NCBI GenBank assembly: GCA_947589005.1
Contig: CANPZO010000002.1
Coordinates: forward strand, 7,713-71,712
Source: an uncultured Clostridia bacterium
GTDB taxonomy: Bacteria; Bacillota; Clostridia; UMGS1883
Direction of reading: 5' to 3'
DNA length: 64,000 bases
Position 1 is the first letter of the stretch. Each line of letters starts with the position of its first letter. The notes under the pieces are model-generated. The model made no database searches. It was given only the letters and a program-made list of their open reading frames with translations, and was not told the DNA's origin. Both the position numbers and the translations under genes were made by a program. This document shows positions 1 through 41,508 of this stretch, piece after piece.

Positions 1-373
1 AGTCCTGATTTTTGTCCACCCAAGATGTAAAATACCGGCCGTCACTGCTGCGGAAATCCGCACGGAATATGCCTATGCAGCCGTTATTTGTTCTGAGCCG
101 TCGTATGTCGGCCTCCTCTGTTTTGGGAACGGTCAGCTCCACGGCGCACATTTCCATAGGCTCGTATGTTGCCCCGACGCGCTCCATCATTTCGGCAAAC
201 TGGCAGATATGATAAACGCTTCTGTTGTTAAGCTCAAAGTGATAGTCGTCTATGTACCGACAGGGGTAGGTGTTTTTTTCGCCGTTTCTGTCTGTGATAC
301 ATATCTTCCCTCCGTCGGGGATTGAAAAAAGTCTCTCGTAGTCGCTGTTTATGAAGTTTATATCCCTGTTCAT
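1..373 (-). CDS. Hypothetical protein, 5' end in window (N-terminus MNRDINFINSDYERLF...); gene continues past the left edge
   Basis: Start codon at complement 373-371, preceded by RBS AGGAGGG (revcomp of 'ccctcct' at 377-384). Open frame to the window edge. AT-rich context typical of a mobile element. Confidence 0.45.
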   Translation of the reverse strand, partial: MNRDINFINSDYERLFSIPDGGKICITDRNGEKNTYPCRYIDDYHFELNNRSVYHICQFAEMMERVGATYEPMEMCAVELTVPKTEEADIRRLRTNNGCIGIFRADFRSSDGRYFTSWVDKNQD

Positions 374-541
374 TATTATTTCCCTCCTGTGTACCGCTCA
401 TGTTTACCCGACCTGATTGGCGGATATTTTTTCAGATCGTCTCTGTACTGCTCTCTTGTTTTAAAAAAGCTGCACCGCCCTGCCGCGCAAAACATATTCA
501 TCAATACGCTGCACTCTCCGTTTTTGTATGCGAAACAAGTC

Positions 542-751
542 TTATTTACCATAGTTTTCATCTTCCTTTTCAATTAATTTTACATAGCTCGCCACACGAA
601 GCCCCTCGGCTTCGGCGGCGGCAAAGAGTTTTTTCATTACGCGCCCGCGCCTTGCGGTCAGCTCCTTGCGATAGGCCGCCTTGACAGCCTTATATGCCGT
701 GAGGTCAAGATAACCGCTGGCGTTTCGCTTTTCACTGTCCACATGGCTCAC
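542..751 (-). CDS. Small hypothetical protein (69 aa), mobile-element associated
   Basis: ORF overlaps the next gene by 4 bp (ATGA coupling). Basic, helical composition. Confidence 0.4.
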   Translation of the reverse strand: MSHVDSEKRNASGYLDLTAYKAVKAAYRKELTARRGRVMKKLFAAAEAEGLRVASYVKLIEKEDENYGK

Positions 752-1005
752 CTCTCAGGCTCGCGCTTTTTCTTAAACTGCTCGAGGAATTCTATTTCAC
801 TCATTGTGCGGTCGCAGAAATCCTTTTTTGCGCTGAGTTCGGAGGCGAAGTAATGGCCGTGATTGTAGCTGTCACCATTCACGCAGGACCATGTGACGTA
901 TGGGGATGGAGTGCTTACGCCTTTCTTTTCACCGAGGACGATCTCCTTTTGTCCGACGGTGATACTGCTCGTTATAACGTAACCGGCGTTAGTTCTCTGT
1001 TCCAT
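748..1005 (-). CDS. Hypothetical protein (85 aa)
   Basis: ORF in an operon-like string with neighbouring minus-strand genes. Start overlaps the stop of an upstream small ORF. Confidence 0.4.
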   Translation of the reverse strand: MEQRTNAGYVITSSITVGQKEIVLGEKKGVSTPSPYVTWSCVNGDSYNHGHYFASELSAKKDFCDRTMSEIEFLEQFKKKREPER

Positions 1006-1156
1006 CGGCTTTTTCCTCCTCTTTTGTTTCGTCCGAAGCGGGCGAATGTCTGTCCATTTCGTCGTCGGCCTGACTTGCTACGACGAGGCAGCAATATACC
1101 GCGATAATTATGCCCGCGACCACAAATGCGGCTGCTGCTACAAGTGCGATTTTCAT
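989..1156 (-). CDS. Small predicted membrane protein (about 55 aa, MKIALVAAAAFVVAGIIIAVYCCLVV...)
   Basis: Not in the ORF track (below cutoff). ATG at complement 1156 with upstream GAAAGG. Hydrophobic helix then acidic tail. Stop overlaps the start of the 748..1005 gene. Confidence 0.35.
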   Translation of the reverse strand: MKIALVAAAAFVVAGIIIAVYCCLVVASQADDEMDRHSPASDETKEEEKADGTEN

Positions 1157-1164
1157 TGTGTACA

Positions 1165-2019
1165 CTACCTTTCTTTATCTATTTTTCTTTTTCTTGACCA
1201 GTTTTCAAGGAGCTTTATGACGGTTTCCTCCATCTGCTCCGGTGTATATCCCCTTGGGAAATATTTTCGGATTTTGTCCGTTTTGAACGTCAACTTGGCC
1301 TTCTCGGGCTTTTCCTCCCGCATTATGGCCTCTATGACGGCGGGCGAGAGCTTGTCCTCCTGATAAAACTGCCGTATTCGCCCGGCTTGTGAAATGGAAG
1401 GAGCGGTGCAGTCCTGCTCGATGACCTTCAAAACCTCCGATTGAGCTTTTGAGCCGAGGTATGACAGCTCAACCGCTGCGCTGAGGGCAATTTCCTTCCT
1501 GTCCACCATGTCCAGCAGGGGAGTTATGAGGTTGGTGAGGCGTATGTAGCGCTGGATTTGCTTGACGCTCTCACCTGAAATTTCCGATAAAACCTCATTT
1601 GAACGTCGCTTTTCTAACTTCGGGCCAATTTGACCCGAAGTTAAATCTGTCCTTTTTCCCTGACGTTTCATAGCTTCCAGCTTCATTTGATATGCAAAGG
1701 CTTTTTCGCTGAGAAGGATATTTTCCCTTTGCAAGTTGCTGTCCACAAGCAATATAACCGCCGCGTCGTCGTCAAGCTGGCGCACCATGACCGGCGCTTC
1801 CTTTATTCCTGCAATCTCACAGGCTTTGACACGTCTGTGGCCGGACAGTATCTCATACCCGCCGCCCTCTCTTGGCCGGGCAATGATGGGGGACAGCACC
1901 CCGCTCTGGCGTATGCTTTCCGCAAGCTCGTCCATACCTTCATCAAGCTGCACCTTAAAAGGCTGCTCAGAAAAGGGATACAGCTCCGACAGTGGGACGG
2001 TGCGGAGTTCTTCGTCCAC
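1165..2019 (-). CDS. ParB/Spo0J-like nuclease-domain protein (plasmid or ICE partition or processing)
   Basis: ParB N-terminal domain motifs: 'GHRRVKACEIAGIKEAPVMVR' and 'ILLVDSNLQRENI'. Stop/start overlaps the upstream gene. Confidence 0.7.
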   Translation of the reverse strand: MDEELRTVPLSELYPFSEQPFKVQLDEGMDELAESIRQSGVLSPIIARPREGGGYEILSGHRRVKACEIAGIKEAPVMVRQLDDDAAVILLVDSNLQRENILLSEKAFAYQMKLEAMKRQGKRTDLTSGQIGPKLEKRRSNEVLSEISGESVKQIQRYIRLTNLITPLLDMVDRKEIALSAAVELSYLGSKAQSEVLKVIEQDCTAPSISQAGRIRQFYQEDKLSPAVIEAIMREEKPEKAKLTFKTDKIRKYFPRGYTPEQMEETVIKLLENWSRKRKIDKER

Positions 2020-2885
2020 TAAGTATCACTCCCTCCGTACAAATCAAAAGCCACCGCGTTCTGGAGCTGGGCTTCAGCGGTGGCAGGTACATTAAACAGC
2101 GACGTTATGAGGTAGGCTTTCATGTTGCGGATTTTCTGGGTGTTTTTCTCAAACTGGAGCAAAAAGCTCTCAATGCCGGCATAGTCTATATCACGGAAGC
2201 GCTTCCGCACAAGCTCTGTGCTGTATGTGTAGCCCTCTATGACATAGCTTGACCGCTCCACGGTCAGGACTTCGGCCATGATGTTGACTATTTCATCGAC
2301 TACGGCCCGGTCATGTGTGGCCGTGAGGCTTTCATAGCAGATGTTCTGCCGGACAAATTCGGCGTTCTGTTCGTATTTATCCACCGACCTATCCGCTGCG
2401 GGATTGATAGATGGGTAATTAATACGCTCAGTATTTGATTTGTTTTTATTTGATTTATCTTTTATTAATTGCGTTGGATTTTCCAACGTAGGTTTTGCCT
2501 GCGTTGGCTTTACCAACATTGGATTTTCCAACGTAGGCTTTTCCAACATAGGTTTCTCCAACACAGGCTCGTCCAATGCAGGCTCTCTCGGCTCAGGCTT
2601 TTCGTGTATCACATACTCTGCGTCGGTGAGCTGGCCTTTTTCATTCCTGCGGCGGCTGCGCTCGATGTATCCGGCCGCCTCCAGCTCCTTTATGGAAACG
2701 CGGATAGCGTCGATGCCCTCCCTGCTGATGATGGCTAACCCTCTCAGGGTGTAGTCCCACTCCTCCGGCAGACTGAGCATGACGGACATCAACCCCTTTG
2801 ACCTGAGCGACAGCCTCTTGTCCCGCAGATGACAGTTTGACATCACGGTAAAGTCCTTGTTTTTTTCTACCCGGAATACTGACAT
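2019..2885 (-). CDS. Putative replication initiator / DnaD- or RepA_N-like winged-helix protein with Pro/Glu-rich pentapeptide repeat region
   Basis: N-terminus 'LSLRSKGLMSVMLSLPEEWDYTLRGLA...IKELEAAGYIERSRRR' resembles Firmicutes RepA_N / replisome-organiser wHTH. Central in-frame repeats (EKPMLEKPTLENPMLVKPTQ...) are encoded by the 15-bp tandem DNA repeats. Confidence 0.5.
   Translation of the reverse strand: MSVFRVEKNKDFTVMSNCHLRDKRLSLRSKGLMSVMLSLPEEWDYTLRGLAIISREGIDAIRVSIKELEAAGYIERSRRRNEKGQLTDAEYVIHEKPEPREPALDEPVLEKPMLEKPTLENPMLVKPTQAKPTLENPTQLIKDKSNKNKSNTERINYPSINPAADRSVDKYEQNAEFVRQNICYESLTATHDRAVVDEIVNIMAEVLTVERSSYVIEGYTYSTELVRKRFRDIDYAGIESFLLQFEKNTQKIRNMKAYLITSLFNVPATAEAQLQNAVAFDLYGGSDT
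2466..2600. repeat. About nine tandem 15-bp repeats (ttggattttccaacg-like units) inside the initiator-like gene
   Basis: Direct reading of the sequence. The units encode pentapeptide repeats on the minus strand. Confidence 0.8.
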
Positions 2886-2967
2886 GGTGTTCCTCCTTTC
2901 TTGATTTTTTGTATATGAAAAAGGCGTGTATCTTTGGTGATACGCGCCTTAACAACAAAATTGGGCA

Positions 2968-2996
2968 TTGACAAAGTTGTATAGTTATGATATAAT
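2968..2996 (+). promoter_or_regulatory. Consensus sigma-A promoter (TTGACA-17-TATAAT)
   Basis: TTGACA at 2968-2973, a 17-nt spacer, TATAAT at 2991-2996. Confidence 0.7.
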
Positions 2997-3002
2997 CTAC
3001 TA

Positions 3003-3188
3003 TACACAGGTAATATGTGTGAGCTTAATATGGCTTGTGTATATTTTATGGCAAGAAGTATTTGAACAAGCGCCTATGTCCCTAAAAGCTGAAATTATTC
3101 CTAAAAAATCGGCATACTTCTCCGCCAACAAAACCCCCACTTGGGGGCGAAAAATCCCAGAGCTTAAAGGGCTTTGGGATTTTTTGTG
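3003..3188 (+). ncRNA. Candidate small RNA (about 185 nt) from the consensus promoter to a two-hairpin intrinsic terminator
   Basis: A perfect promoter is followed about 140 nt later by hairpins 'cccccacttggggg' and 'aaaatcccagagcttaaagggctttgggatttttt' plus a T-run. No credible ORF. The overlapping 79-aa ORF starts inside the promoter. Confidence 0.35.
3134..3186 (+). terminator. Rho-independent terminator (double hairpin plus T-tract)
   Basis: Stem-loops at 3134-3147 and 3151-3185 followed by TTTTTT. Confidence 0.7.
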
Positions 3189-3313
3189 CTTTGTTGCGGT
3201 ATTGTAGTAGGGAAAAACTGATGTCGTTATAGAAATTTTCAATAGCTCATGCACCAAAGCTCCTTTCAGATATATATCATTACTTTGATATTATCAGAAA
3301 GGAGTTTTTTATT

Positions 3314-3682
3314 ATGAAAAAAATCTGGACAAAAGCGCAGTGCCATGAGCTTATGGGGCTTCCCCCTCCCGTTCATGCGAAGATTGATGAAACCGTCGCG
3401 ATACTCAACTTTTACTATGGCGAGAACAGAGATGTTGACAAAAATCTCGGCGGATACGTTCTACTGATAGAGAGTGAGAAAGATTTTGAAAGCCTTAAAG
3501 CTATCTTTCATGAGGAGATAGAAAACCTGACCGCAGAATATGTGGATATAATCCAATGCGAAAATACATCCGCATATATATGCGCTCAAATTATGCTCTC
3601 TGACGATTATTCCGTCGTATTGCTTATTCCCCGTCCCATAACGCCAAACTCGCTGTTAAAACAGGCAAATTCACGCTCATAA
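3314..3682 (+). CDS. Hypothetical protein (122 aa), paralog of 9442..9810
   Basis: RBS GAAAGGAG 8 nt upstream. No recognisable family. Duplicated within the window. Confidence 0.6.
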   Translation: MKKIWTKAQCHELMGLPPPVHAKIDETVAILNFYYGENRDVDKNLGGYVLLIESEKDFESLKAIFHEEIENLTAEYVDIIQCENTSAYICAQIMLSDDYSVVLLIPRPITPNSLLKQANSRS

Positions 3683-3906
3683 GCACACATTATCCGGCTA
3701 TGGTCTATCATTGGGCCATAGCCTTTTTTATTTGCCCTGAAAATACATCTGCACATGGGGACGCGAAATAAGGTCATATTACGATGACTTTTTCCCTCGC
3801 CTGTATTTTGGCGCCGGGCACTGAAAACATGACAAAAACAAACCCCGGAGAGCGAGGGAACTCTCCGGGTAAATTTATATTAAAGGGGATTTACACCCAC
3901 GTATTT

Positions 3907-6900
3907 TTACACTATTTCCACTGTCTCAGCTTCGCCGAGGGGCGTCATTGCTCGCAGCGATCTCCACACAAAGACCTTGGCCCGCTTAATATCCGCGGAA
4001 AGCGGAATATCAATGGTGTAGGACGCGCTGCCGTCACATTCCTGACTTCTCACCGACAAAAGTTTGCCATTGCCATCATATGCCGTCACAATTACAAACG
4101 CATTTTCGAGAGGTTCTGAGGCATCGACATAAAACCTGTAGCTGGACGAGAGCTTTTTATATGTAGTGGCCGTGAGCTTTTCACCGGGTTTGTCGCCAAC
4201 ATCGCCATCATCAAGGCCCACGTCAGGCTCCTGACCGGTGGTGAAAGACTTTATGTCGCCAAATTCAGTCATCTGGAACATATATGTTGTCTCCGAAAGC
4301 AGTCCGTCAATACGCACGCTGTAATCTCCGCCGCCGGCCTCGACCTCGGTCAAAATGACGTTTTCCGGCTCGGAGGCCATCCAATAGCGGATGTATCTCA
4401 CTATGCCGTCGCCCTGACCGGATACGCTGCCGCTCAGTGTCGCGTACCAACTGTCCACATCTTCCGCGTCATTGGTGACCGCCGTAACCTTTGTGCTGGT
4501 GCCGGCCACGTCTAAGGTAATAACGGTGTCCTTGTCGATGATGAAGCTATTGCCGCCCAGCTCCTCGCCGTTGACGTAAATCGCGTCGACCGTATACTCG
4601 GCGGCGGCTTCGGCGTTTACGCGGATTTCCGCGCCGTCAAGAGCTTTAATTCCGCTTGAACCGTCCGCCATCAGGAACACCGCTGAGGCGATCTCCGCCG
4701 GATCGGCGTCCACGTTTTCAAGGGAGCCGGCGGCGTTGGCCGTGGCCTGAACGGTGGCTCTGTATTCGGGAGTTATTTCTCCAAAGGTGGCGTACACGCT
4801 GCTGTCGCCGCTGACCTCGAAGGTGGAGCCGACGGTCTCGACGCCGTTGACGTAAATTTTGCCCAACACATAGCCCTGGTCAGGAACGGCGGAGACGGTG
4901 ACGATCTCGCCGTCCACGGCTTGGGACTTGTCCACGGTCACCGTACCGTGCTCCACCGCGCCCACGCTTATCTCGTTAAGGCAGTCGGTGTACAGGGTGG
5001 GGAGCTGACCCTCTCTTATCACCCATACGGCGTCGGGATTTTCTTGGAGATAGTCCATGGACTGGTAAGGCGTACCGAAAACTCTCTGCTGGAAGGACGC
5101 GCTCTTAAGCTGAGACATGGGTCGCTTGGTCTCGCTTGTTTCAACCTTTTTGCCGCTCGTCGTCAGCTTGAGACCGTCGTTGACATGGTTGTTTTGATAT
5201 GTGGCTGATAAATTGATTTCGCCAACAATATCGCCAACTTTAGAGCCGGTGTTATTGGAAATTATTTCATTAACGATAACAACAACGTCGTTTACGACGC
5301 CACTGCCTGACGCACCGCCAATATTTGCTTTACAATTAGCGGATATTACGCCGTTTACTTTTGCGAAACATTTTTTGCAGTCACCTTTGCCTGTCAAACC
5401 GCCAATTTTAATATTTGCTTTCTCATTTTTATTCCCATTGCATACAATTGCACCACCTTGATATTGGCTATCTTCGATGATTCGAGACATATTCCCCGCT
5501 ATGCCGCCAACATACATATCCTTTGCTCGGTTAGAGTTTACGCAAATGCTGTCATCGTCTGATGTAAACTTTACTGTACAGCGAAGGATGGAATCCGTAC
5601 ATATGCCAACAAGCCCGCCAATATTAAACGTGCTGTATGAGGTGTCGTTATAATATAGTTCTGTAGGATTACTGGTCAATTGTGCGGCGGATACTGTACA
5701 ATTGTATATCATTCCTTCTGAAGCACCGACCATACCGCCCACACTCGTATATTGACCAACAGTGCCGGAAATGGTCATAAGACTATCTTGGGACGTTACT
5801 TCGCAGTCAGTTAGATTGCCATCTATGCATCCTGACAATTGTCCTACTGTTAAATTTCCCCAGTTAACATCTCGATCAAGTGAAATAAAACATGTGTATG
5901 CCGAGCAATTTATGATGTCTCCTGTAATATCACCCAAAAGGCAGCCGAGACAACCCTCATCAGCAAATGAAACTCCTGATACGTTTACATATGTAGCTTT
6001 GCAACTGTCAATGTTTAAACATAATCCGCGTCCTAAAAGTGCTCCCACATATCCGTCACCATATCTATTGTCCATAGTAAAGCCATGGATATCTCCTGAC
6101 ACAGCTACATTTTTCAGCTCGCCAAATTTACCTGATTCCCAGTATGATTTTTTCCCTTTCGCATACCCAAAAATACCAACATAGCCTTCATAAGCCTTGG
6201 TGATCCTCAAATCCGAAATAGTATAGCCGTTGCCGTCAAACGAGCCGCGAAAATACTGATAATCGTTGCCGTAAAGACCGATGGGCACCCATTCGGTGTT
6301 GCCGAGGCTGATGTTGCCGGTAAGCTCGTAGTATTCATACTCCGGATCCGAGGTTTGGGAATTTACCCTTTGTGCAAGATAGGCGAGCTCGGCGGCGCTG
6401 GATATCTGATAGGGGTCGTCCTTGGTGCCGCTGCCGCCGGCAAAGGCCGTGGCCGTGCCGCCGCTCCACGAGCTGTCGCCCCAGACCGCGTAAAGGGTGG
6501 CGTCGTCCTCAAAGGTGTAGTCCATGCCGAGGCGGTATTCCGGCGCGGAAGCGTCGTAGCTCTTCGCCCAGCCACGAAGATAGCAGCCGTCCTTTATGGC
6601 CGAATTGGGCATACGCATGGTGTCGCCGTAGGTCAACTTCTGGTCCTGGAGCTCGCCCTTGCCGCCGTTGAGGTCAAAGTGTATGTCAAAGACCTTTGGT
6701 TCCCATACGGCGTAGAGGGTTATGTTTGTGTTTCTGTTATATCTGCCGCCGGCCTCGTATGAAGCGTAAGCCGCGGTTCGGCTTGAGGCCCAGCCCAGAA
6801 AATTATAGCCCTTTTTTGTGGGCACGGTACGGGACAGGGTCAGGGGCTGATCCTGTATTTTGGACTGCTGGGCGGGCGCGCCAGTGCCGCCGTTGGCGTC

Positions 6901-7965
6901 ATACTGCACGGTATAGGTGTTGTATATCCGGAAATCGTCACAGCTTACGGTCTTTTCCTGACCGGTATTAGTGTTGCGGACAATAAGGCTCGCGGAGTAG
7001 CTGCCGGCGGAGAGGCCGTTTACGCGGTGCTCGATGGCGTTCATGCTGTAGGTGGCGTAAAGGCCGCCGTTTTGGTAAAGCTGGAGGGTATAGTCCGTGG
7101 CGTTGGAAGCGTTGCCGCGCTTGAAGGTGGCGCTCCCGCCGGTTTTGTCAACCGTTCTTGTGAGAACGATATTGCCGATGGGATAGCACGAGCGGCAGCT
7201 TGTCACGCTTCGGGTGGAGCCGGTGTACTCCTTAGCCCCGCAGGACGTACACGTTTTGTACTCCTGATGCGGGTGGCCGCTTTCTAATTGAGTGATCCAG
7301 CTGTGGGTATGGGCGGCGGGTTTCTGGGCCGGTGAAGTCAGATTGCAGCTTCCGCTCGAAATGTACCAGTATTGGTTCAGGTTGCCTATTCGTTGGTCTT
7401 GCGTATCTCCGGATAAATAAGCCTGTGTAAGTTTAATACGGCCTGAGGGAATGCCAGAGGCTGGGTCAGCACAATAGACCGTATCCGAAGAAGCGTCGTA
7501 GTCAGTCGCCAAAACAGCATGGCGGCGTTTGGAGGGGTAGCTGTCATTAGGATACATATAGATAACTACGCCTTCCGCATGCTCACTGAGCAAAGAAATG
7601 AGCTTGTTTTTCTTATCCGCCGAAGAACCGGAAAACATACCGTATTTTACGGTCATTCCGGCATAAGAAAAACTAAGTCTTTGTCCCGCACCGGATACCC
7701 ATCCATAAGGCTCAACCGCGCTTTCTGTTATAGAATCCCAGTTTTCGTTGCCGCTTAAAAGCGCGTTCCTGCGAAGCATCATTGTTACAGAGGCCAAGGT
7801 ACACCTGCCTTTGCCCGACTGCTTTTTAAACACCGACGGATCATTTGCTGATGGAAGCGCCATAGTTTCGGCATCCCCTGTGCTCGCAAACGAAGCCGCC
7901 GGCACAAAGCTCAGAACCATTGCCATACAGACAAGCATGGCTAAAAGTTTTTTCCACTTTATCAT
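3907..7965 (-). CDS. Large secreted surface protein with several domain-like segments
   Basis: Start is the MIKWKK ATG with AAGGAGG RBS (the upstream ATG lacks an RBS). Signal peptide present. Segments: C39-like papain-fold peptidase motif 'GKGRCTLASVTMMLR'; two 'YNFLGW...YAVWEP' Listeria-Bacteroides repeats; a long Gly/Asn-rich beta-helix region; FN3-like; C-terminal recurrent 'YDGNGKLL...VFVWRSLRAMTPL' module. Confidence 0.75.
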   Translation of the reverse strand: MIKWKKLLAMLVCMAMVLSFVPAASFASTGDAETMALPSANDPSVFKKQSGKGRCTLASVTMMLRRNALLSGNENWDSITESAVEPYGWVSGAGQRLSFSYAGMTVKYGMFSGSSADKKNKLISLLSEHAEGVVIYMYPNDSYPSKRRHAVLATDYDASSDTVYCADPASGIPSGRIKLTQAYLSGDTQDQRIGNLNQYWYISSGSCNLTSPAQKPAAHTHSWITQLESGHPHQEYKTCTSCGAKEYTGSTRSVTSCRSCYPIGNIVLTRTVDKTGGSATFKRGNASNATDYTLQLYQNGGLYATYSMNAIEHRVNGLSAGSYSASLIVRNTNTGQEKTVSCDDFRIYNTYTVQYDANGGTGAPAQQSKIQDQPLTLSRTVPTKKGYNFLGWASSRTAAYASYEAGGRYNRNTNITLYAVWEPKVFDIHFDLNGGKGELQDQKLTYGDTMRMPNSAIKDGCYLRGWAKSYDASAPEYRLGMDYTFEDDATLYAVWGDSSWSGGTATAFAGGSGTKDDPYQISSAAELAYLAQRVNSQTSDPEYEYYELTGNISLGNTEWVPIGLYGNDYQYFRGSFDGNGYTISDLRITKAYEGYVGIFGYAKGKKSYWESGKFGELKNVAVSGDIHGFTMDNRYGDGYVGALLGRGLCLNIDSCKATYVNVSGVSFADEGCLGCLLGDITGDIINCSAYTCFISLDRDVNWGNLTVGQLSGCIDGNLTDCEVTSQDSLMTISGTVGQYTSVGGMVGASEGMIYNCTVSAAQLTSNPTELYYNDTSYSTFNIGGLVGICTDSILRCTVKFTSDDDSICVNSNRAKDMYVGGIAGNMSRIIEDSQYQGGAIVCNGNKNEKANIKIGGLTGKGDCKKCFAKVNGVISANCKANIGGASGSGVVNDVVVIVNEIISNNTGSKVGDIVGEINLSATYQNNHVNDGLKLTTSGKKVETSETKRPMSQLKSASFQQRVFGTPYQSMDYLQENPDAVWVIREGQLPTLYTDCLNEISVGAVEHGTVTVDKSQAVDGEIVTVSAVPDQGYVLGKIYVNGVETVGSTFEVSGDSSVYATFGEITPEYRATVQATANAAGSLENVDADPAEIASAVFLMADGSSGIKALDGAEIRVNAEAAAEYTVDAIYVNGEELGGNSFIIDKDTVITLDVAGTSTKVTAVTNDAEDVDSWYATLSGSVSGQGDGIVRYIRYWMASEPENVILTEVEAGGGDYSVRIDGLLSETTYMFQMTEFGDIKSFTTGQEPDVGLDDGDVGDKPGEKLTATTYKKLSSSYRFYVDASEPLENAFVIVTAYDGNGKLLSVRSQECDGSASYTIDIPLSADIKRAKVFVWRSLRAMTPLGEAETVEIV

Positions 7966-8084
7966 GTATATTCCTCCTTGTTTTTTTCTCATTATAACAT
8001 ACTATCTTTAAAAAAGCAATACTATCTCTATAAATTTATAAAAAATGTCTTTAAAAAGGATATAATATATTTGGTGATGATATA

Positions 8085-8414
8085 ATGAATTTGAAAAACA
8101 TAGGAAAAAACGTCAAGCAAATACGGAAGTCACGTAACTTGACCCAAGAAAAGCTGGCCGAGGCTATTGATATTTCCACCGTTCATATGTCACACATTGA
8201 AACAGGCAGCGTCTGCATGAGCCTCGACTGCCTGCTTTACCTGTGTACGGTTCTTGGAACCACGCCAAACGACATTTTGTTAGGCGAATTTGACCTGCCG
8301 GTCGAGGGGCAGGTGCGCATATCTGACGAAAAAATAAAAAGGCTCACCGCCGACGAGCTTTTGTTTATAGGCCGCGTCGCCGATTTGTTGAATGAAATTA
8401 AGCTGAACAGATGA
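8085..8414 (+). CDS. Xre/Cro-C1 family HTH transcriptional regulator
   Basis: HTH_3 motif 'IRKSRNLTQEKLAEAIDISTVHMSHIETG'. Confidence 0.8.
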   Translation: MNLKNIGKNVKQIRKSRNLTQEKLAEAIDISTVHMSHIETGSVCMSLDCLLYLCTVLGTTPNDILLGEFDLPVEGQVRISDEKIKRLTADELLFIGRVADLLNEIKLNR

Positions 8415-8692
8415 GGCCCGATATCCCTTTTGAAAACTCTATGCAACTGTTTACCGGCAAAATCAACGAGTTGACAGAGGAAAACGAGCGGCTTAACCGA
8501 GAAATAACTGAGAAAAAAGCCTCACTACCCGCCGCCCCTCTATCAACAGATGAAATCATGGCCTTAAAGCAAGACTTCATCACCTATATGCTTGACGAGA
8601 ACAATCTCCCGATTTGTAAAAAATGCCTTCAATCACTGATTGAGGGCATTTTTATTTATGAGGATGAAGTCAAGATAGTTTTCAACATTTAA
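8411..8692 (+). CDS. Hypothetical coiled-coil protein (93 aa)
   Basis: ATGA overlap with the upstream Xre gene. C-terminus '...CKKCLQSLIEGIFIYEDEVKIVFNI' faintly recalls a recombinase C-terminus (weak). Confidence 0.4.
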   Translation: MRPDIPFENSMQLFTGKINELTEENERLNREITEKKASLPAAPLSTDEIMALKQDFITYMLDENNLPICKKCLQSLIEGIFIYEDEVKIVFNI

Positions 8693-8699
8693 ACCTACA

Positions 8700-9231
8700 T
8701 CTGTCCCCATTTTGAGCCTATCCTCACCATAAGAGGATAGGCTCCTTTCGGGCATGATTTGTAAAATTCAAATATACATCTACCTATGAATTTAAGATAT
8801 CAGCTATATGCAGATGAGCAGATGTTTTCATCTGCATATCATGCGCACTCTTTCGAAGATAGTTTTTACCAATAACTTACTGCACTTTATAAATCCATGC
8901 TCCCCCGCTCCCCCTTGTTTAATCTATCACGCATGCAGGGATAGAACGATTTTTCATGTGCATATATGGTTATACAGCTTTAGTTAAAGAGATTATTATT
9001 TTCTATAAGGTCTGTGTAATATTATCAACAGAAGATGAGACAAGTACATATATCATCTGAAGATAGCTATTATATATTTTCATAGCAAGATGAATTATGT
9101 AACTCTATCATCTGCGGATAGATTTTTTTAAACCTCATCTTTCCATGATAACTTCATTTTCACTAAAAATTTTTTAAAGTTATTTTTATCAGGTACTTAC
9201 TGCACTTTCGTCTCCAAGGTGGGGAATTTGA
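8700..9231. repeat. AT-rich non-coding region with multiple short inverted repeats around a 'catctg' core and 14-bp direct repeats 'acttactgcacttt' (8873 and 9195)
   Basis: For example 'atgcagatga...tcatctgcat', 'agatga...tcatct', 'ctatcatctgcggatag'. The direct repeats are exact. Confidence 0.6.
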
Positions 9232-9258
9232 CGGTATACGCACCTTCTCCGCCAACAA

Positions 9259-9312
9259 AACCCCCACTTGAGGGCGAAAAATCCCAAAGCTTAAAGGGCT
9301 TTGGGATTTTTT
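9259..9312 (+). terminator. Rho-independent terminator (copy of 3134..3186)
   Basis: 'cccccacttgaggg' then 'aaaaatcccaaagcttaaagggctttgggattttttt'. Confidence 0.65.
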
Positions 9313-9441
9313 TGTGTCTTATTGCGGTATTGTAGTAGGGGAAATGTGATGTTGTTATAGGATTTTTCAATCGCTCATGCACCAAAGCTCCTTTCAGATA
9401 TATATCATTACTTTGATATTATCAGAAAGGAGTTTTTTATT

Positions 9442-9810
9442 ATGAAAAAAATCTGGACAAAAGCGCAGTGCCATGAGCTTATGGGGCTTCCGCCTCCTGT
9501 TCATGTTAAGATTAATGAAACTGTCGCAATACTCAATTTTTACTATGGCGAGAACAGGGACGTTGACAAAAATCTCGGCGGATACGTTCTGTTGATAGAG
9601 AGCGAAAATAATTTTGAAAGCCTTAAAGCTATCTTTCATGAGGAGATAGAAAACCTGACCGCAGAATATGTGGATATAATCTCATGCGAAAACACGTCCG
9701 CATATGTATGCGCTCAAATTGTGCTCTCTGACGATTATTCCGTCGTAATGCTTATTCCCCGTCCAATAACGCCAAACTCGCTGTTAGAACAGGCAAATTC
9801 AAGCTCATAG
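9442..9810 (+). CDS. Hypothetical protein (122 aa), paralog of 3314..3682
   Basis: About 93% amino-acid identity to the copy A gene, with the same RBS context. Confidence 0.6.
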   Translation: MKKIWTKAQCHELMGLPPPVHVKINETVAILNFYYGENRDVDKNLGGYVLLIESENNFESLKAIFHEEIENLTAEYVDIISCENTSAYVCAQIVLSDDYSVVMLIPRPITPNSLLEQANSSS

Positions 9811-10084
9811 GTAATGCCATAAGCGGTTGATGAAACATATATTATCATTTTGATATATACCAGCGGCCGACTGTGCAGGAACATAGTCCATCGCTCCTAT
9901 TCTACTTAAGAGAGACTTGTATTTTATAAAAAGCTGTGTTATTATACATATGATTTTACTCATCAATAAACTACATCTCAGATCTTGGTGTAAATAAAAA
10001 AATTATATAAAAACCGAACCTTTTACGCTGATTTTGTCACTATATAATGTCAGTACTGAAAAAATTATGAAAGTGGGATGCCAT

Positions 10085-12571
10085 ATGAAACGGTACAGTG
10101 ACCGGAGCGATGGCGAGCTTGTCTACATGACTCTAAGCGGTGACACAGATGCTTATGGAGAGCTGGTTGCCCGGCACAAAAATACAGTCTACAATGCGGC
10201 TTATGCTGTTGTGCATGAGCATTACGCGGCGGAGGACATCGCCCAAGACAGCTTTGTGGACGGCTTTATGCAGCTTCACCGGCTTTACGATCCGAACAAG
10301 TTTCCGGGCTGGATATATGCTGTCGCCCGGCGCAAGGCATTGCATTACGTCTCTCGCCGGCGGACGCATGAGGACATAGACAATGTTCCGGCAGTCAGCG
10401 CCGGCAGCGACCCTCTTGCCCGTATACTGAAAGAGGAAAGAATAAACGAAGTCAGAGCCGCTGTTGACGCCCTTTCTGAGAAAAACAGAACCGTAGCGGA
10501 GTTATTCTATTTTAAGAATGTTAATGTCAGCCGGATATCCGCTTTATTGGCTCTGCCGGAGGGAACTGTTAAGCGCAGGCTTCATGAGGCAAGAAAAAAA
10601 CTTAAAGAGAGGTTGGGATATATGCACGAAATGAGAAAAGAGGTCTCTGCCGATTTTGAAAAGATAGTGCAGAGGAAGATCAAGGAGTTGTCCGATTACG
10701 TGAGGCTCCACGGTTATGACGAGGATTATGATAAGCTGATCGGGGAGCTGGTGGACTTTGTTGTAACCCTGCCGGACTCCGAAGAAAAATGGTCGGCATC
10801 AGAAAATGTGGCTGAAACGCTTAGAGATATGTTTTTCTACCAATTCCGCGGGATGAATGATAATCATGAGGAGGCTATAAAATTCTTTGATACTGTGGCA
10901 GTTCCAAAAATGGAGAGCCTGAAAAATAACACCGGCATGGGTGATATTCTGTTTTGGCGTGGAGTGTGCAAATTTGCGCTTCGCCAAACAAATGAGGCCC
11001 GGGCCGACTTTACGGAGTCCCTGCGGCACTCAAAACCCTCCGATATTATGCACGCTTTGGCGGTTTCGGCTGTCAGGACGGTTGATCTGCTGAAAGAAAA
11101 TGCCGAGGACAACATACTGGGATATCAAATCACAGCCGAGGGCTACCGTTATGAGGGAGGAAAGCTCATTTTCCGAAGCCAGCCGGGAATTATCTCCGGC
11201 CGCCAGCACGAGAGCCTTAGTCATGTTTCCTTGGGATATTTCCTGTCGCGCTGTGATGACATTATGTTTGATACAGAAATGAAGGTGGGAGACATTCGCA
11301 CGAGCGACGGCGGAAGGATAAGTCTCGCGCTTGTTGCCCTTGACGAAAGCGTTACCGTTCAGGCGGGGACCTTTGAGTGTATGCACCTGATTTTGACTGA
11401 GGCGGGAGAGGTTACAGATGTCTGGTACTCCGATGGCATTGGCCTTGTTCGCGCAAGGTTCAATGGTCAGGAAAATGAGGAGGTTTACGAGCTGTCGGAG
11501 TATGAAATCAAGGGCGGCGAGGGGTATTGGCCTTTCTGTGAGGGCAACCGCTGGCGGTATGAAAACCCCGGTGTGCCCGACTACATTTATTATCGGCTGG
11601 AATATGAGGTGGACTGGACTGACGGTGCCTCCGCCAACCTATCCTACGTTACACCCATTGCATATAAGAAGAATTACGATTTGGAATATAGCATGGACAG
11701 CGATATGTATATTGATAAATGTTATCTCTGCTGCGACAACTGGGAGATAGATGAGGCTATTGAAGCTCTACGGCTGGCCGTTAGGGAAAACACATCACAG
11801 CAAGCGGCCTTGGCGGCTCTGGGCGGCATCGAGTATCTCGAATGGTTCAGAGATCTCAACAACAAGAATTACCGCTTCTGCCCGTCGAGCTACGCCGTCA
11901 GCAAAATCGGAAGGCTCGGCGACAAGATAGTTTATTCAGAGGGCGGAGTATATAGGTTTGGGCCATACCGTCTCGGTACCCGTTTTGAGGAAAACCGTAT
12001 TTTCGGTTATAAGCCCTTGCGATATCTGGAAATACTCTGTGACTGCGTCTGGGATGATAGCTGGGTTGACGGATACAGAAGCGAATGGAAATATGATGAC
12101 GCGGATGTTACGCTAACCGTGAATAAGGCGGGAGAAATTACCGTTCCGGCGGGTACATTTGCAGACTGCTTGAAGGTGATCATTACCGCCGAAGCTTCGG
12201 GTCTCAGCGGCGGCTGCTACTTTGACGATTACTCTCACACCTGGCGGGGAAAAAAGGAATACTGGTTCGCGCCCGGAGTGGGACTTGTACGCTTTGATTG
12301 TGAATGGGGTGATGTGCTGGACGCCTCTGCGCAATTGGTAAATTACCGTAATCCTGCCGGAGAATATAGATATTTCCCCTTGGCGCTGGGCTGCGAATGG
12401 GAGTATGACGAAGTGAATATGTCTCGCGAGGGCTACTGCGCTAAACGAATCATGAAAGTTATGTGCGGCATGAACAAACAATACCTGATGCAAGACATAA
12501 GCAAGGGCGTATTCCTTGGCACAGAAGAAGAGTATGAGGAATTTAAGAGAAAAATCTCGAAAAACAATTAA
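10085..12571 (+). CDS. ECF-type sigma-70 family protein fused to a long (about 650 aa) C-terminal extension with an internally duplicated domain
   Basis: Sigma region 2 ('YNAAYAVVHEHYAAEDIAQDSFVDGFMQL...PGWIYAVARRKALHY') and region 4 HTH ('LSEKNRTVAELFYFKNVNVSRISALLALPEGTVKRRLHEARKKL'). The C-terminus shows twice '...AGTF..C....IT.A.......YW.APGVGLVRF...' with no TM segment. The start is taken at MKRYS (the upstream ATG lacks an RBS). Confidence 0.7.
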   Translation: MKRYSDRSDGELVYMTLSGDTDAYGELVARHKNTVYNAAYAVVHEHYAAEDIAQDSFVDGFMQLHRLYDPNKFPGWIYAVARRKALHYVSRRRTHEDIDNVPAVSAGSDPLARILKEERINEVRAAVDALSEKNRTVAELFYFKNVNVSRISALLALPEGTVKRRLHEARKKLKERLGYMHEMRKEVSADFEKIVQRKIKELSDYVRLHGYDEDYDKLIGELVDFVVTLPDSEEKWSASENVAETLRDMFFYQFRGMNDNHEEAIKFFDTVAVPKMESLKNNTGMGDILFWRGVCKFALRQTNEARADFTESLRHSKPSDIMHALAVSAVRTVDLLKENAEDNILGYQITAEGYRYEGGKLIFRSQPGIISGRQHESLSHVSLGYFLSRCDDIMFDTEMKVGDIRTSDGGRISLALVALDESVTVQAGTFECMHLILTEAGEVTDVWYSDGIGLVRARFNGQENEEVYELSEYEIKGGEGYWPFCEGNRWRYENPGVPDYIYYRLEYEVDWTDGASANLSYVTPIAYKKNYDLEYSMDSDMYIDKCYLCCDNWEIDEAIEALRLAVRENTSQQAALAALGGIEYLEWFRDLNNKNYRFCPSSYAVSKIGRLGDKIVYSEGGVYRFGPYRLGTRFEENRIFGYKPLRYLEILCDCVWDDSWVDGYRSEWKYDDADVTLTVNKAGEITVPAGTFADCLKVIITAEASGLSGGCYFDDYSHTWRGKKEYWFAPGVGLVRFDCEWGDVLDASAQLVNYRNPAGEYRYFPLALGCEWEYDEVNMSREGYCAKRIMKVMCGMNKQYLMQDISKGVFLGTEEEYEEFKRKISKNN

Positions 12572-12605
12572 CGTTTAAGTATCCATTGGTCCTCCGTCTG
12601 ACATA

Positions 12606-12640
12606 ATGAAAAACGGCTGTCGGTGACAGCCGTTTTCTCT
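12606..12640 (+). terminator. Intrinsic terminator after the sigma-fusion gene
   Basis: 'aaaacggctgtcggtgacagccgttttctcttt'. Confidence 0.6.
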
Positions 12641-13242
12641 TTAGTTCTTGCAAAGTTCTTAACGCCGGTGTATTGAACGAGTTTCATGCAATATTAATCT
12701 TTTCGTGAATTATATTTTTTACAACAATGCAATTTAAAAAAGAGAACATTTCAAAATTTGTTAATGGGGTAGGTGAATATAATTTTGACTGTAAATACAA
12801 AATGGCGGTTGTGTCCCATTTGTCTATCTTAAGATCTACGCCCATATACAAGTTATCATCTCTGTAGAAAATGGGGGGCGGGCTCTAACTATACCAACAG
12901 CAAAGTCTTTTGGCTCAGAAAGGAGATGCCAAGCTGTTGGAGCCATATAAAATCCCATGTATCCTGCGCATAGGAAATCAGGACGAAAACGGATCGGCGG
13001 GAACAGCCGTTCCGATGATGAAAAATTGACGTTTATGCAAAAATATGGCTGGCTGATGGAGGACACGGATGTGAGGTTTTACAGCTCATTTTTTAAACAG
13101 CAGCGTAAAGAAACGCAAAAATAGGATTTAAATGAAAATGCAGTGCTTAGGCACATGGTGAACAAAGTCGTATATATACACTTTATGGTAAATATAAATG
13201 GTTAATATTTTGCGCAATTTCCTATCATCGTATTTTATACAC

Positions 13243-13271
13243 TTGATTTTATCAGTCATATCATTTATAAT
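13243..13271 (+). promoter_or_regulatory. Sigma-A-like promoter for the LysR gene (TTGATT-17-TATAAT)
   Basis: Hexamers at 13243-13248 and 13266-13271. Confidence 0.5.
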
Positions 13272-13328
13272 ATTTATGTATAACCGCAAAAAAATTACAA
13301 TGAGCGCACGTCGAAAGGAAAAAATGCC

Positions 13329-14213
13329 ATGTTGAAACAAATCAGATATTTTCACGCCGTGGTGCGTCTGGGCAGCTTCAGCGAGGCGGCGGAGCAATGT
13401 TACATATCGCAGTCCGCGATCTCTCAGCAGGTTCAGGCCCTGGAGCGGGAGCTGGGCGTAACGCTGCTGAAACGGGAGAACCGGCATTTTTCTCTGACGC
13501 CCGCCGGAGAGCATTTCTACCGGCAAAGCCTTTTATTTATGGCGGACTTTGACCGGCTGTGCAAGGAGACGAAACAAATCGCTCAGGGAGATGATTTTGT
13601 CCTGCGCGTCGGATATACCAAGGGATACGGCGGCGCGGAATTTCAGCGGGCGGTGGCGGAATTTACGGCGAAATACCCCGATGTTCCCATCGACATGAAA
13701 AACGGCAATCACGAGGACTTGTATGAACTACTGCGCGGTGGACAGGCGGATTTGGTGCTGAACGACCAGAGGCGCGCTTTTTCGGACGAGTACGTCAATA
13801 CCGTCCTGACCGTAATAAACTGCTATATCGAAATATCCGCCAGAAATCCCATTGCCGGGTTGGATTATGTCAATGTCAGCGATCTGCGGAACACTCCCTG
13901 TATTTTGGTCGCATCGAAAGAGCAGCAGGAAAACGAACGGTCCTATTATCATGAGATATATGGGATCGAGAGCCAATTTATATTCGCCGAAAATTTGGAT
14001 GAAGCACGGCTCATGGTCGTGAGTGGGAAGGGCTTTCTCCCCATTGAGGGAGGCGAGGCGCCGTCGCAGTTTGCCGAGACGATTGCGCGGCTTCCCCTTT
14101 GCCGAAACGGAAAACCCATAAGACGCAATTACTGCGCTTTTTGGAAGGTCAATAACTCCGGCTACTATATCGAGGAATTTGCCGAGATATTGAAAGCTCA
14201 GTTTAAGAAATAG
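13329..14213 (+). CDS. LysR-family transcriptional regulator
   Basis: N-terminal LysR HTH 'IRYFHAVVRLGSFSEAAEQCYISQSAISQQVQALERELGVTLL'. 294 aa. Confidence 0.85.
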   Translation: MLKQIRYFHAVVRLGSFSEAAEQCYISQSAISQQVQALERELGVTLLKRENRHFSLTPAGEHFYRQSLLFMADFDRLCKETKQIAQGDDFVLRVGYTKGYGGAEFQRAVAEFTAKYPDVPIDMKNGNHEDLYELLRGGQADLVLNDQRRAFSDEYVNTVLTVINCYIEISARNPIAGLDYVNVSDLRNTPCILVASKEQQENERSYYHEIYGIESQFIFAENLDEARLMVVSGKGFLPIEGGEAPSQFAETIARLPLCRNGKPIRRNYCAFWKVNNSGYYIEEFAEILKAQFKK

Positions 14214-41339: not shown

Positions 41340-41412
41340 CAGCTTATTTCCCGCTCCAAAGCCCCTTTCAGATATATCATTACTTTGATATTATCAGAAA
41401 GGAGCTTTTTAG
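41340..41412 (+). repeat. Relic third copy of the 5'-UTR/RBS-hairpin region that precedes the 122-aa genes (no gene follows)
   Basis: 'ccaaagcccctttcagatatatcattactttgatattatcagaaaggagcttttta' matches 3255-3312 and 9383-9440. Followed by an immediate stop. Confidence 0.7.
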
Positions 41413-41508
41413 GTTGTGAACTAAATATCGCGTTTGTTCAGTGTGTTGTTCGCAAAAGAGCGGTATCAAAATCATGCCGTCTTAAGTATAACTTTTTATG
41501 GCCCCCAA

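Follow-up and report, generated by a model that had tools for sequence, protein, structure and literature searches.

An islet between 570-bp direct repeats is probably a decayed SCC-like cassette at the 3' end of tRNA-Ser(GCU) in a Clostridia bacterium

SCC elements matter since SCCmec makes MRSA, and SCC biology outside staphylococci is barely charted. Like the cassettes described below, SCC and SCCmec insert site specifically at the 3' end of a conserved gene and leave short direct repeats of this 3' end (PMC7581432, PMC11470126). SCC-like islands outside staphylococci, as well as tandem cassettes and pseudo-SCC cassettes mobilized in trans, have been described (PMC7581432, PMC10061031, PMC10581047, PMC11470126). 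They include the Enterococcus cassette chromosome, islands at rlmH in Bacillus, Geobacillus, and C. difficile, islands at ssrA in C. difficile and C. perfringens, and CIccrDE at rimL, and composites that contain the target 3' end as two or more repeats are known among them (PMC10061031, PMC10581047, PMC6222049). What these islands have in common with the family analyzed here is the same replication and recombination gene set at an altered integration site (PMC10061031, PMC10581047, PMC6222049). In a limited check of the SCC-like literature, we found mention of neither a tRNA-Ser(GCU) target nor the conserved left module consisting of a hairpin and a 122-aa gene.

Unrelated elements are also known to pile up at single tRNA genes. 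In tRNA-gene island arrays and in the accretion of streptococcal ICEs and CIMEs, each element leaves a displaced tRNA 3' fragment at the shared tDNA, and decayed elements with retained att sites adjoin an ICE. Classical tDNA islands use tyrosine integrases, whereas the cassettes considered here use large serine recombinases.

We analyzed a 64-kb stretch of DNA from an uncultured Clostridia bacterium (the window), in which two long direct repeats, copies A and B, bracket a small islet. We conclude, with a probability of roughly 80%, that positions 3117-9243 of the window represent a decayed, recombinase-less cassette of an SCC-like family that inserts at the 3' end of tRNA-Ser(GCU). The practical gain for the window is a corrected annotation of the att cores, the pseudo-cassette, the ICE boundary, and the promoter owned by the ICE. 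The features are as follows.

1-3116, minus strand: right-hand part of an ICE, including ParB (1165-2019) and a DUF6017 protein (2019-2885), assigned by Pfam
2968-2996, plus strand: outward consensus promoter of the ICE terminus, TTGACA-17-TATAAT, with TG
3117-3127, plus strand: att core of copy A, the last 11 nt of tRNA-Ser(GCU), CTTCTCCGCCA, defined by comparison with related loci
3128-3193, plus strand: putative P' recombinase half-site of copy A with hairpin 1 (3133-3148), then the intrinsic terminator hairpin 2 (3147-3187 plus T-run)
3256-3308, plus strand: Shine-Dalgarno (SD)-masking hairpin of copy A with U-tract; its 3' arm is the SD sequence GAAAGGAG
3314-3682, plus strand: 122-aa gene of copy A, encoding an acidic alpha/beta protein of an unnamed family tied to SCC-like elements
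3907-7992, minus strand: cargo gene for a 1361-aa secreted protein with Listeria-Bacteroides (Flg_new) repeats, assigned by Pfam
8085-8414, plus strand: cargo gene for an Xre-family HTH regulator
8411-8692, plus strand: 93-aa ORF, the C-terminal remnant of the second large serine recombinase of the cassette, recognized by tblastn
9214-9243, plus strand: conserved right end of the cassette (P arm), CCAAGGTGGGGAATTTGACGGTATACGCAC, shared with related loci
9244-9254, plus strand: att core of copy B, which with the P arm to its left and the P' site to its right forms an attP-like junction
9255-9318, plus strand: putative P' half-site of copy B with hairpin 1 (9260-9275), then terminator hairpin 2 (9276-9312)
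9384-9436, plus strand: SD-masking hairpin of copy B, identical to that of copy A
9442-9810, plus strand: 122-aa gene of copy B
10034-14213, plus strand: genes after module B, for an 845-aa sigma-70/ECF fusion protein (10034-12571) and a LysR regulator (13329-14213)
41355-41413 (core 41364-41402), plus strand: solo hairpin relic with a 2-nt deletion and a few substitutions; the gene is absent

A gapped alignment of copy A (3117-3685) with copy B (9244-9813) revealed 92.8% identity (41 differences in 570 columns). This bears out the two near-identical direct repeats (about 93%) described in a sequence-only reading of the window, while the limits given there, 3107-3690 and 9232-9815, extend too far, by about 10 nt at the left ends and about 5 nt at the right ends. 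The copies are colinear on the same strand, 6.1 kb apart. Each contains the paired hairpins that had been reported (3133-3148 and 3147-3187 with the T-run in A; 9260-9275 and 9276-9312 in B), and the proposed paralogous 122-aa genes are intact ORFs in both (3314-3682 and 9442-9810). Between A and B, 14 synonymous and 10 nonsynonymous codon differences were counted, and none of the 58 positions of the hairpin region differed. Judged from the sequences, both 122-aa genes are under purifying selection.

Copies of the 3' end of the target gene flank the islet as direct repeats, as expected of an SCC element (CTTCTCCGCCA at 3117 and at 9244); the cassette target is the 3' end of tRNA-Ser(GCU) and not rlmH (orfX). 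The left module comprises the att core from tRNA-Ser, a recombinase half-site, a terminator, the hairpin, and the gene (112-133 aa across relatives). In all likelihood, two site-specific cassettes stand in tandem here, and the 570-bp repeats are their left-end modules instead of the termini of a single cassette. The earlier description as a mobile or recombining cassette holds with regard to an origin from mobile DNA; it fails with regard to the 570-bp repeats as termini, each of them being a left module that starts at the tRNA fragment. Nor are the repeats the recombination sites: these are predicted to be the 11-12-nt tRNA fragment and the dyad of about 50 bp around it.

Intact relatives in other Clostridia show the complete arrangement. 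An intact tRNA-Ser(TGA)-tRNA-Ser(GCT) pair stands immediately before the module in five loci (L003, L005-L008) and about 300 nt upstream of it in L002. The element of the relatives, about 7.3 kb long, consists of the module, a Mor-like gene, a large serine recombinase gene, a Cch-type DUF927 helicase gene, a second recombinase gene, a right end of about 30 bp, and a tRNA fragment; variable genes are also held between the Mor-like gene and the first recombinase gene. The gene order is identical across L002-L006. The intact relatives L002-L007 have two recombinases each, with the domains Resolvase, Recombinase, and Zn_ribbon_recom, and Pfam analysis of L007 revealed Mor, this recombinase architecture twice, and DUF927 plus Cch-HTH.

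The relatives thereby resemble SCC and SCCmec elements, which have one or two large serine recombinases and a Cch helicase (DUF927 plus Cch-HTH); the likeness to SCC recombinases such as CcrA, CcrB, and CcrC is established at the level of domain architecture. Further common features are tandem arrays, recombinase-less cassettes with cargo, and a 122-aa family found beside DUF960 and DUF1643. The differences concern the target (tRNA-Ser(GCU) instead of rlmH/orfX), the hosts (gut Clostridia instead of staphylococci), the order recombinase-cch-recombinase in the relatives, and the replacement of the DUF950/960/1643 trio by a Mor-like gene and the 122-aa left module in the tRNA-Ser group. Together, the locus and its relatives show that in gut Clostridia the SCC-type machinery of recombinase and helicase has been redirected to a tRNA-Ser gene, in an array that moves surface proteins, regulators, and defense genes.

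The att sites could be followed from locus to locus. The attR junctions in L003, L004, L006, and L019 read ...GGTATACGAAC, then CTTCTCCGCCA, then non-module sequence, and in the window this right end is found before copy B. The 11-12-mer was present at both attL and attR in L003, L006, L007, and L019, and at attR in L004. In six loci, the right end, the core, and the left module together form an attP-like dyad spanning 49-58 bp, with matches at 9-11 of 11 positions; this predicted site agrees with the imperfect dyad of about 50 bp expected of the attP of a large serine recombinase. In L019, a hand count put the center of the dyad at the left edge of the shared 12-mer. L007 harbors two identical module-bearing copies (0 differences in 3186 nt), which may be no true tandem and result from an assembly that passed through a circular form. 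An assignment of the module to phages or plasmids was rejected: it had no match in PLSDB plasmids and a single weak relative in IMG/VR.

Of such an element, the islet retains the left module, the right end at 9214-9243, and a recombinase stump. The ORF at 8411-8692, previously described as a small ORF coupled to the regulator gene, is in fact this C-terminal stump: tblastn revealed 43% identity of the 93-aa product to residues 418-493 of the 493-aa recombinase of L007. Apart from the stump, the islet contains no ccr-type large serine recombinase gene; a Cch/Cch2 helicase gene is absent from it, and no recombinase was found in the 64-kb window. Neither an excision product nor an empty site of this genome was observed. 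Since the recombinase genes are missing, the islet qualifies only as a pseudo-cassette (pseudo-SCC-like). Its 1361-aa protein had been credited with a C39-like domain, which Pfam did not detect; only the Flg_new repeats were found. We propose that the inner genes of this first cassette were replaced by the cargo, a surface protein and an Xre regulator, and that the 93-aa stump was left behind. Because it has no recombinase of its own, the islet would be excised today only with a cognate recombinase acting in trans, and a proper attP would be present on the resulting circle; homologous recombination between modules A and B could, alternatively, delete the islet.

On its left side, the islet borders an ICE whose end, ...AAAAAATCGGCATA, abuts the tRNA fragment directly. 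The same ICE end is joined to CTTCTCCGCCA in three different contexts (L013-L018), and by this comparison the ICE upstream of the islet uses the same 11-nt core. Only the core is common and the arm sequences differ, so cis-mobilization of the cassettes by the ICE is not predicted. The perfect consensus promoter, which had been attributed to repeat A, lies within the terminal 150 bp of the ICE and is identical in every ICE copy, those in other contexts included; it is a property of the neighboring ICE. An intact tRNA-Ser is expected at the far end of the ICE, beyond the window. The hotspot is used by the ICE and at least three other islands, namely a tyrosine-integrase element beside the ICE and elements in L019, L054, and L056, and the ends of the latter three abut a longer tRNA fragment.

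On the right side, the linkage of module B to the sigma gene recurs in other samples. A search allowing 3-6 mismatches revealed no third tRNA fragment or att site and no right end downstream of copy B, and therefore the second unit may be a fixed remnant and not a cassette. The array is thus probably ordered as ICE, att core, pseudo-cassette, att core, and second cassette or remnant. Its two left modules, which differ by 7%, probably diverged elsewhere before they came together; one cassette may have integrated site specifically next to the other, or the modules may have served for homologous recombination. In a sample of the same species (L054; sigma protein 99.5% identical), a single module was found that is a mosaic of A and B, with a different island upstream. 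The content upstream of copy B thus differs between same-species samples. The sequence-only reading had named old, diverged paralogs at unrelated loci without a break in flanking synteny as the pattern that would speak against it; L054 and the window show a variable region upstream of copy B instead.

The protein encoded by the left module belongs to a family with 742 cluster representatives. It had no match in Pfam, PHROGs, NCBIfam, or PADLOC, and 34 family members had none in Pfam even at E<=10. Its AF2 model (pLDDT 91) matched no solved structure in Foldseek, and a profile search against solved structures yielded nothing meaningful. The protein was not assignable to DUF950/SaUGI, DUF960, or DUF1643, the small ORFs of SCC elements, with neither a Pfam nor a structure match and none to SaUGI. 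In other Firmicutes, the family colocalizes with DUF960, DUF1643, and RadC. Members were detected in SCC-like loci at rlmH with an 18-nt direct repeat at the flanks (C. perfringens-type loci, distant relatives), and also between DUF960 and DUF1643, adjoining a PolA-MP-helicase-recombinase block. The Cch-type helicase of relatives is composed of DUF927 and HTH_56, and L069 has a D5/DUF5906 helicase with PolA. Two apparent fusions were counted for gene adjacency only: P0140 (DUF960, family domain, and HTH) looks like a frameshift chimera, and in P0051 (family domain and RadC JAB) the RadC part is truncated.

The 122-aa protein is, as far as these neighborhoods indicate, very probably a conserved small accessory protein of SCC-like elements. 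By analogy to the neighboring SaUGI-, DUF960-, DUF1643-, and RadC-type genes, our best guess is a role in establishment or anti-defense. This large unannotated family travels with the cassettes and persists after their decay, and it is a concrete candidate to fill the "small conserved ORF" functions that are so far poorly understood in SCC-type elements. More speculatively, and with the odds against it, the tRNA-Ser(GCU)-targeting SCC-like cassettes might constitute a widespread, undescribed branch in gut Clostridia, whose invariant left module encodes a new core family locked by terminator and anti-SD pairing and released only in a particular state of the element, to serve as an establishment, anti-defense, or recombination-control factor. 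If true, such a role would explain why the 122-aa gene alone survives under purifying selection in decayed cassettes.

Upstream of both genes, at 3262-3302 and 9390-9430, we observed an identical 41-nt palindrome, CCTTTCAGATATATATCATTACTTTGATATTATCAGAAAGG (0 expected by chance). The full hairpin has 12 + 4 + 6 pairs (-23.4 kcal/mol; z = -8.1) and masks the RBS as had been suggested, with a longer stem than the 11 bp assumed. It is kept in 10 distinct sequences (z-scores of -4.5 to -9.9), as is the 8-bp anti-SD:SD pairing. Changes that preserve pairing include three C-to-U changes (as G.U) and one double change, and the middle stem is variable yet paired; pairs were counted from individual folds, as the MAFFT hairpin alignment mis-registers the inner stem. 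The claimed conservation of an RBS-occluding hairpin is thus upheld by these 10 sequences. With its stable stem, U-tract, paired SD, and compensatory or wobble changes, it is, by this comparison, a predicted terminator and SD-sequestering hairpin.

According to the proposed mechanism, hairpin 2 would end transcription arriving from the tRNA gene or from the outward promoter of the ICE. In the third hairpin, the anti-SD CUCCUUUC would pair with the SD GAAAGGAG, with the U-tract next to it, so that readthrough transcripts would be terminated and translationally locked. With a U-tract after its anti-SD:SD stem and right before the start codon, the hairpin is built like known intrinsic terminators and SD-sequestering leader hairpins; in contrast to known SD-sequestering leaders, it is without an Rfam match and the upstream leader is not conserved. 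Rfam gave no match at the gathering threshold in the whole window and none at E<=1 in 3090-3340. Other roles were considered and rejected: a riboswitch or attenuator leader, given a spacer that is not conserved between 92%-identical relatives; an RNA thermometer, for which -16 to -29 kcal/mol is too stable; and an Frpo-like single-stranded DNA promoter, whose -35 and -10 boxes would not fit into a stem of about 22 bp.

A different explanation of the palindrome, which we regard as possible although doubtful, is that it acts as DNA, being a promoter with an overlapping operator, and that transcripts start within its 3' arm and form no hairpin. Indeed, in both copies the palindrome contains a weak promoter-like match with an extended -10 TG (TTCAGA-18-TATTAT), all aligned sequences share TGATA, and the spacer, which is not conserved between close relatives, offers no convincing promoter. 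However, the putative -10 lacks the key final T in L002 and L007, and the CUCC in the 5' arm, which precedes any -35, stays perfectly complementary to GGAG, the sole changes being from C to U. Moreover, distant members keep a hairpin and U-tract of unrelated sequence, which points to structure and not to a binding site. For the locus as a whole, the module could instead be native chromosome downstream of tRNA-Ser, with islands inserting in between and one of them having captured a copy. This would fit its persistence in tiny remnants (1.2 kb between two cores in L062), its stable linkage to the sigma-845 and LysR genes in this species, and the purifying selection on both copies. We nevertheless consider it unlikely: the sequence after attR in L003, L004, L006, and L019 is unrelated, and therefore the module is inside the element. 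It also holds the P' half of a dyad that is completed by the right end of the element, the two halves covarying between loci; it is repeated together with the element in L007, and homologues of its gene are found deep within SCC-like elements at rlmH.

Two further explanations dispense with site-specific cassettes. The long direct repeats around a cargo segment recall a composite transposon or a recombination cassette that ends in the 570-bp repeats and moves or inverts through them, and the mosaic module of L054 shows that the repeats do recombine. However, the repeats contain no transposase or IS-like gene and encode a conserved protein under purifying selection, each begins exactly at the tRNA fragment, and copy B comes after a conserved serine-recombinase right end. 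In addition, among 69 loci there was no repeat-bracketed unit at a non-tRNA site with target-site duplications, and we consider such a composite highly improbable. Even less credible is a local segmental duplication of a chromosomal gene without a mobile element. It would account for the colinear, same-strand copies at a distance of 6.1 kb, but a divergence of 7% with synonymous bias is unlike a recent local duplication, and the tRNA fragments, the conserved right end, and the recombinase stump have no place in it.

Finally, the sequence-only reading had noted a relic of the hairpin and 5' untranslated region without the gene at 41340, beside an acetyltransferase gene. The relic is real: it comprises 59 nt (41355-41413) and adjoins a Mac/hexapeptide acetyltransferase gene. 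Its chromosomal context is conserved in sample L064, with no sign of mobility there. It follows a 97-aa gene and is at most a terminator-like hairpin after this gene.

Ungapped and gapped comparison with a base-by-base count showed that the direct repeat described in the sequence-only reading is real, with 41 differences in 570 aligned columns (92.8% identity). Each copy comprises a tRNA-Ser fragment, two hairpins, a ribosome binding site (RBS) hairpin and a 122-aa gene. The features of the window are as follows.

2968-2996, consensus promoter at the end of an integrative conjugative element (ICE)
3117-3685, copy A (module A)
3117-9243, islet between the starts of copies A and B
8411-8692, small ORF with a recombinase match
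9220-9243, element right end
9214-9275, attP-like junction
9244-9813, copy B (module B)
10034-12571, sigma-70 fusion gene
41355-41413, relic of the hairpin without the gene
52429, tRNA-Leu

The differences between A and B were spread unevenly: 5/75 across the tRNA fragment and the two hairpins at the start, 8/65 in the spacer, 0/58 from the RBS hairpin to the ATG, and 27/369 in the coding sequence. Since 14 codons (plus the stop codon) changed synonymously and 10 nonsynonymously, both 122-aa genes are intact and have diverged under purifying selection.

A scan for relatives of the 122-aa protein, with one genome per species, yielded 11 loci. A tRNA-Ser(TGA)-tRNA-Ser(GCT) pair was located upstream of the gene in six metagenome-assembled genomes of Clostridia. 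The module followed the tRNA directly in five of them (about 300 nt further on in locus L002), and in those five the double hairpin of the window is the sequence right after the tRNA. Both window repeats start with CTTCTCCGCCA, the last 11 nt of tRNA-Ser(GCT) including the CCA end; no tRNA-Ser was found within the window, where tRNA-Leu is the sole tRNA. Downstream of the 122-aa gene, L002-L007 share the order Mor-like 94-aa protein, variable small genes, 546-aa large serine recombinase (Resolvase + Recombinase + Zn_ribbon_recom), DUF927/Cch-HTH helicase (Cch being the DUF927 helicase of the staphylococcal cassette chromosome, SCC), 493-aa second large serine recombinase, and a conserved right end ...TGGGGATTTTGACGGTATACGAAC, followed once more by CTTCTCCGCCA. 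Since unrelated chromosome with its own terminator lies beyond this second core in L003, L004, L006 and L019, relatives of this type appear to be integrative elements of approximately 7.3 kb. Their attL would consist of tRNA and module, and their attR of the right end and the displaced tRNA fragment; the 570-bp module would be the left end of the element.

When right end, core and module were joined, they formed a dyad of 49 to 58 bp, which reads AAAGTGGGGATTT...AAATCCCCACTTT in L007. Both arms vary together from locus to locus, and in L019 a hand count placed the dyad centre at the left edge of the shared 12-mer. By sequence, the dyad has the form expected of a large-serine-recombinase attP site. 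Of the double-hairpin terminator proposed earlier, hairpin 2 stands as a canonical terminator, but hairpin 1 is largely the P' half-site. L007 (9815-20345, on a contig shared with L020) holds two head-to-tail, 100% identical copies of a 7345-bp element, with 0 differences over 3186 nt. Either the two copies form a real tandem, or the short-read assembly took a path through an excised circle; under either reading, the attP junction is present in that sample. In L004, three more serine-recombinase-like segments lie upstream of the module (1-3300), and the left edge of the module is without the tRNA fragment; insertion of another element to its left is suggested.

In the window, the element right end TGGGGAATTTGACGGTATACGCAC stands just before copy B; it is unique there, and none is expected by chance. 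At 43% identity (E=5e-11), the ORF previously described as a coupled small ORF matches the 493-aa recombinase over residues 418-493. The start of this ORF overlaps the stop codon of the Xre gene (ATGA, 8411-8414), and the recombinase remnant may still be translated, coupled to Xre. No trace of Mor, the first recombinase or Cch was found within the islet, the cargo of which is a 1361-aa secreted protein with Flg_new repeats and the Xre regulator. The right end, the recombinase stump and the missing genes together suggest that the islet is a cassette that has kept both ends and lost its machinery, a pseudo-cassette in SCC terms. The junction of P arm, core and P' is attP-like, as is the two-copy junction of L007. 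Because modules A and B differ by 7%, the tandem arrangement in the window is genuine. A third att site downstream of copy B was not found in the window.

The same tRNA end is probably also the target of the ICE located left of copy A, which carries ParB and DUF6017 genes. Exact copies of the DUF6017 gene were detected in other samples, where the ICE always ends with ...AAAAAATCGGCATA joined to CTTCTCCGCCA. This one end precedes three different neighbours: module A (window and L013), a tyrosine-integrase/Xis/Rep element (L014, L015) and a plain terminator (L016-L018), which argues for the shared target. The small element of L014 (2000-5700) and L015 encodes a tyrosine integrase, an HTH_17 excisionase, a REP_ORF2-G2P rolling-circle Rep and a TIR_2-TPR protein, at the same tRNA-Ser core beside the ICE. 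The consensus promoter noted before copy A exists, with a perfect sigma-70 consensus and an extended -10, but it belongs to the ICE terminus and not to repeat A; it faces outward and is present in all ICE copies. In the circular form of other ICEs, outward-facing terminal promoters drive transcription through the joint, and this one may do likewise. Within the DUF6017 gene, a tandem array with a 15-nt period (2474-2578) encodes P-x-L-E-K/N-P pentapeptide repeats (EPVLEKPMLEKPTLENPMLVKPTQAKPTLENP).

In L019, L054 and L056, other elements abut a longer tRNA fragment of approximately 22-23 nt before the module. L062 (7447-8676) contains a 1.2-kb mini-remnant between two CTTCTCCGCCA cores, retaining only the left module with its 124-aa gene and an 81-aa gene. 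L054 and the window belong to one species (sigma protein 99.5% identical); in L054, a single module precedes the sigma gene. At the sites that differ between A and B, this module is a patchwork, mostly A-like in its 5' part and B-like at its 3' end, which shows that modules recombine with each other. Thus, the "recombining" half of the proposed mobile or recombining cassette is supported; the interpretation as a whole holds in part, and the observation behind it is confirmed.

The RBS-occluding hairpin proposed earlier is indeed conserved. In the tRNA-Ser group, an 8-bp pairing of CUCCUUUC with the Shine-Dalgarno (SD) sequence GAAAGGAG is kept in ten distinct sequences. The stem is extended by A:U pairs, and a U-tract lies just ahead of the AUG. 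Changes in the 5' arm comprise three independent C-to-U transitions, with pairing kept as G.U, and one double change; the mid-stem sequence varies by locus and is paired in each (z-scores -4.5 to -9.9). In distant family members, a strong hairpin with a U-tract precedes a free SD by 10-15 nt, and these hairpins are unrelated in sequence, even between L058 and L059. This points to a terminator-like structure immediately before the gene as the conserved property, with additional masking of the SD predicted in the subgroup of the window. The 41-nt palindrome, which is unchanged between A and B and not expected by chance, contains a weak promoter-like match and might instead hold a promoter, but the candidate -10 element is not conserved. 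Rfam contains no family for the leader of the 122-aa gene.

The relic is the same hairpin (59 nt, 2-nt deletion) and still folds (z = -4.6). Both here and in another sample, L064, it comes after a 97-aa gene, next to a hexapeptide acetyltransferase. It appears to be a genuine homologous fragment, as had been claimed, and may now serve as a terminator; evidence of a mobile unit marked by it was not found.

A first search for the 122-aa protein retrieved only 35 unnamed relatives. Among 1.84 billion cluster representatives, a profile search retrieved 742 at E<=1e-3 and 294 at E<=1e-10; across sources, the only name was "hypothetical protein". The AlphaFold model is confident (pLDDT 91.3, pTM 0.85), with the predicted topology beta-alpha-alpha-beta-alpha-beta-beta-beta-alpha and no significant structural match in PDB or BFVD. 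The protein is acidic (pI 4.6-4.8), and Y35, G36, R39, G46, G47 and E75 are (near-)invariant in the family. In Clostridium perfringens-type loci, rlmH (the orfX homologue) is directly followed by elements that contain the family gene, in the order TIR or restriction-modification cargo, family gene, 99-aa gene, DUF960, Cch and large serine recombinase. The left cargo is interchangeable in L058-L061 (C. perfringens and relatives), being either a TIR_2 protein or a restriction-modification system of type I/IIG. L059 has a second copy of the final 18 nt of rlmH 12.5 kb downstream, which is the classical SCC arrangement. In Eubacteriaceae bacterium ES2 (L069, CP130740.1), the family gene is between DUF960 and DUF1643, beside RadC and after a PolA-MP-D5 helicase-recombinase block, which makes this locus the counterpart of the SCC "pattern 2" ccr complex (PMC7581432). 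The complete block (3249-11840) reads PolA, small protein, D5/DUF5906 helicase, large serine recombinase, 120-aa ORF, DUF960, family gene, DUF1643, RadC. L067 and L068 again combine the family gene with DUF960, RadC, Cch and recombinase. These contexts identify the family as a companion of the SCC small conserved ORFs that had so far gone unnamed. We tentatively favour a role in establishment or anti-defence, by analogy with SaUGI and RadC-type neighbours.

Beyond the staphylococci, SCC-like islands have been found at rlmH, ssrA and rimL, and published work documents tandem and pseudo-SCC cassettes that Ccr recombinases mobilise in trans (PMC10061031, PMC10581047, PMC11470126, PMC6222049). In contrast, the cassette family of the window targets tRNA-Ser(GCU). 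Neither this target nor the conserved left module (recombinase half-site, terminator, SD-locking hairpin and 122-aa gene family) is described in the cited SCC literature; we judge the locus to be a variant of the known islands.

Module B is followed by the sigma-70 fusion gene and a LysR gene, a linkage that recurs in L001, L054 and L055. In the fusion gene, an ECF-type sigma-70 (regions 2 and 4) continues into a C-terminal part of approximately 650 aa, where TPR and DUF3108-like segments occur. Such a single-chain sigma/sensor architecture is unusual; in several samples it occurs in linkage with module B. The G+C content is approximately 37-51% in window positions 1-14000, the ICE/cassette region (two stretches of the surface-protein gene reach 54-57%), and approximately 55-65% in most of 15000-64000; the contrast is consistent with horizontal acquisition of the whole left 14 kb.
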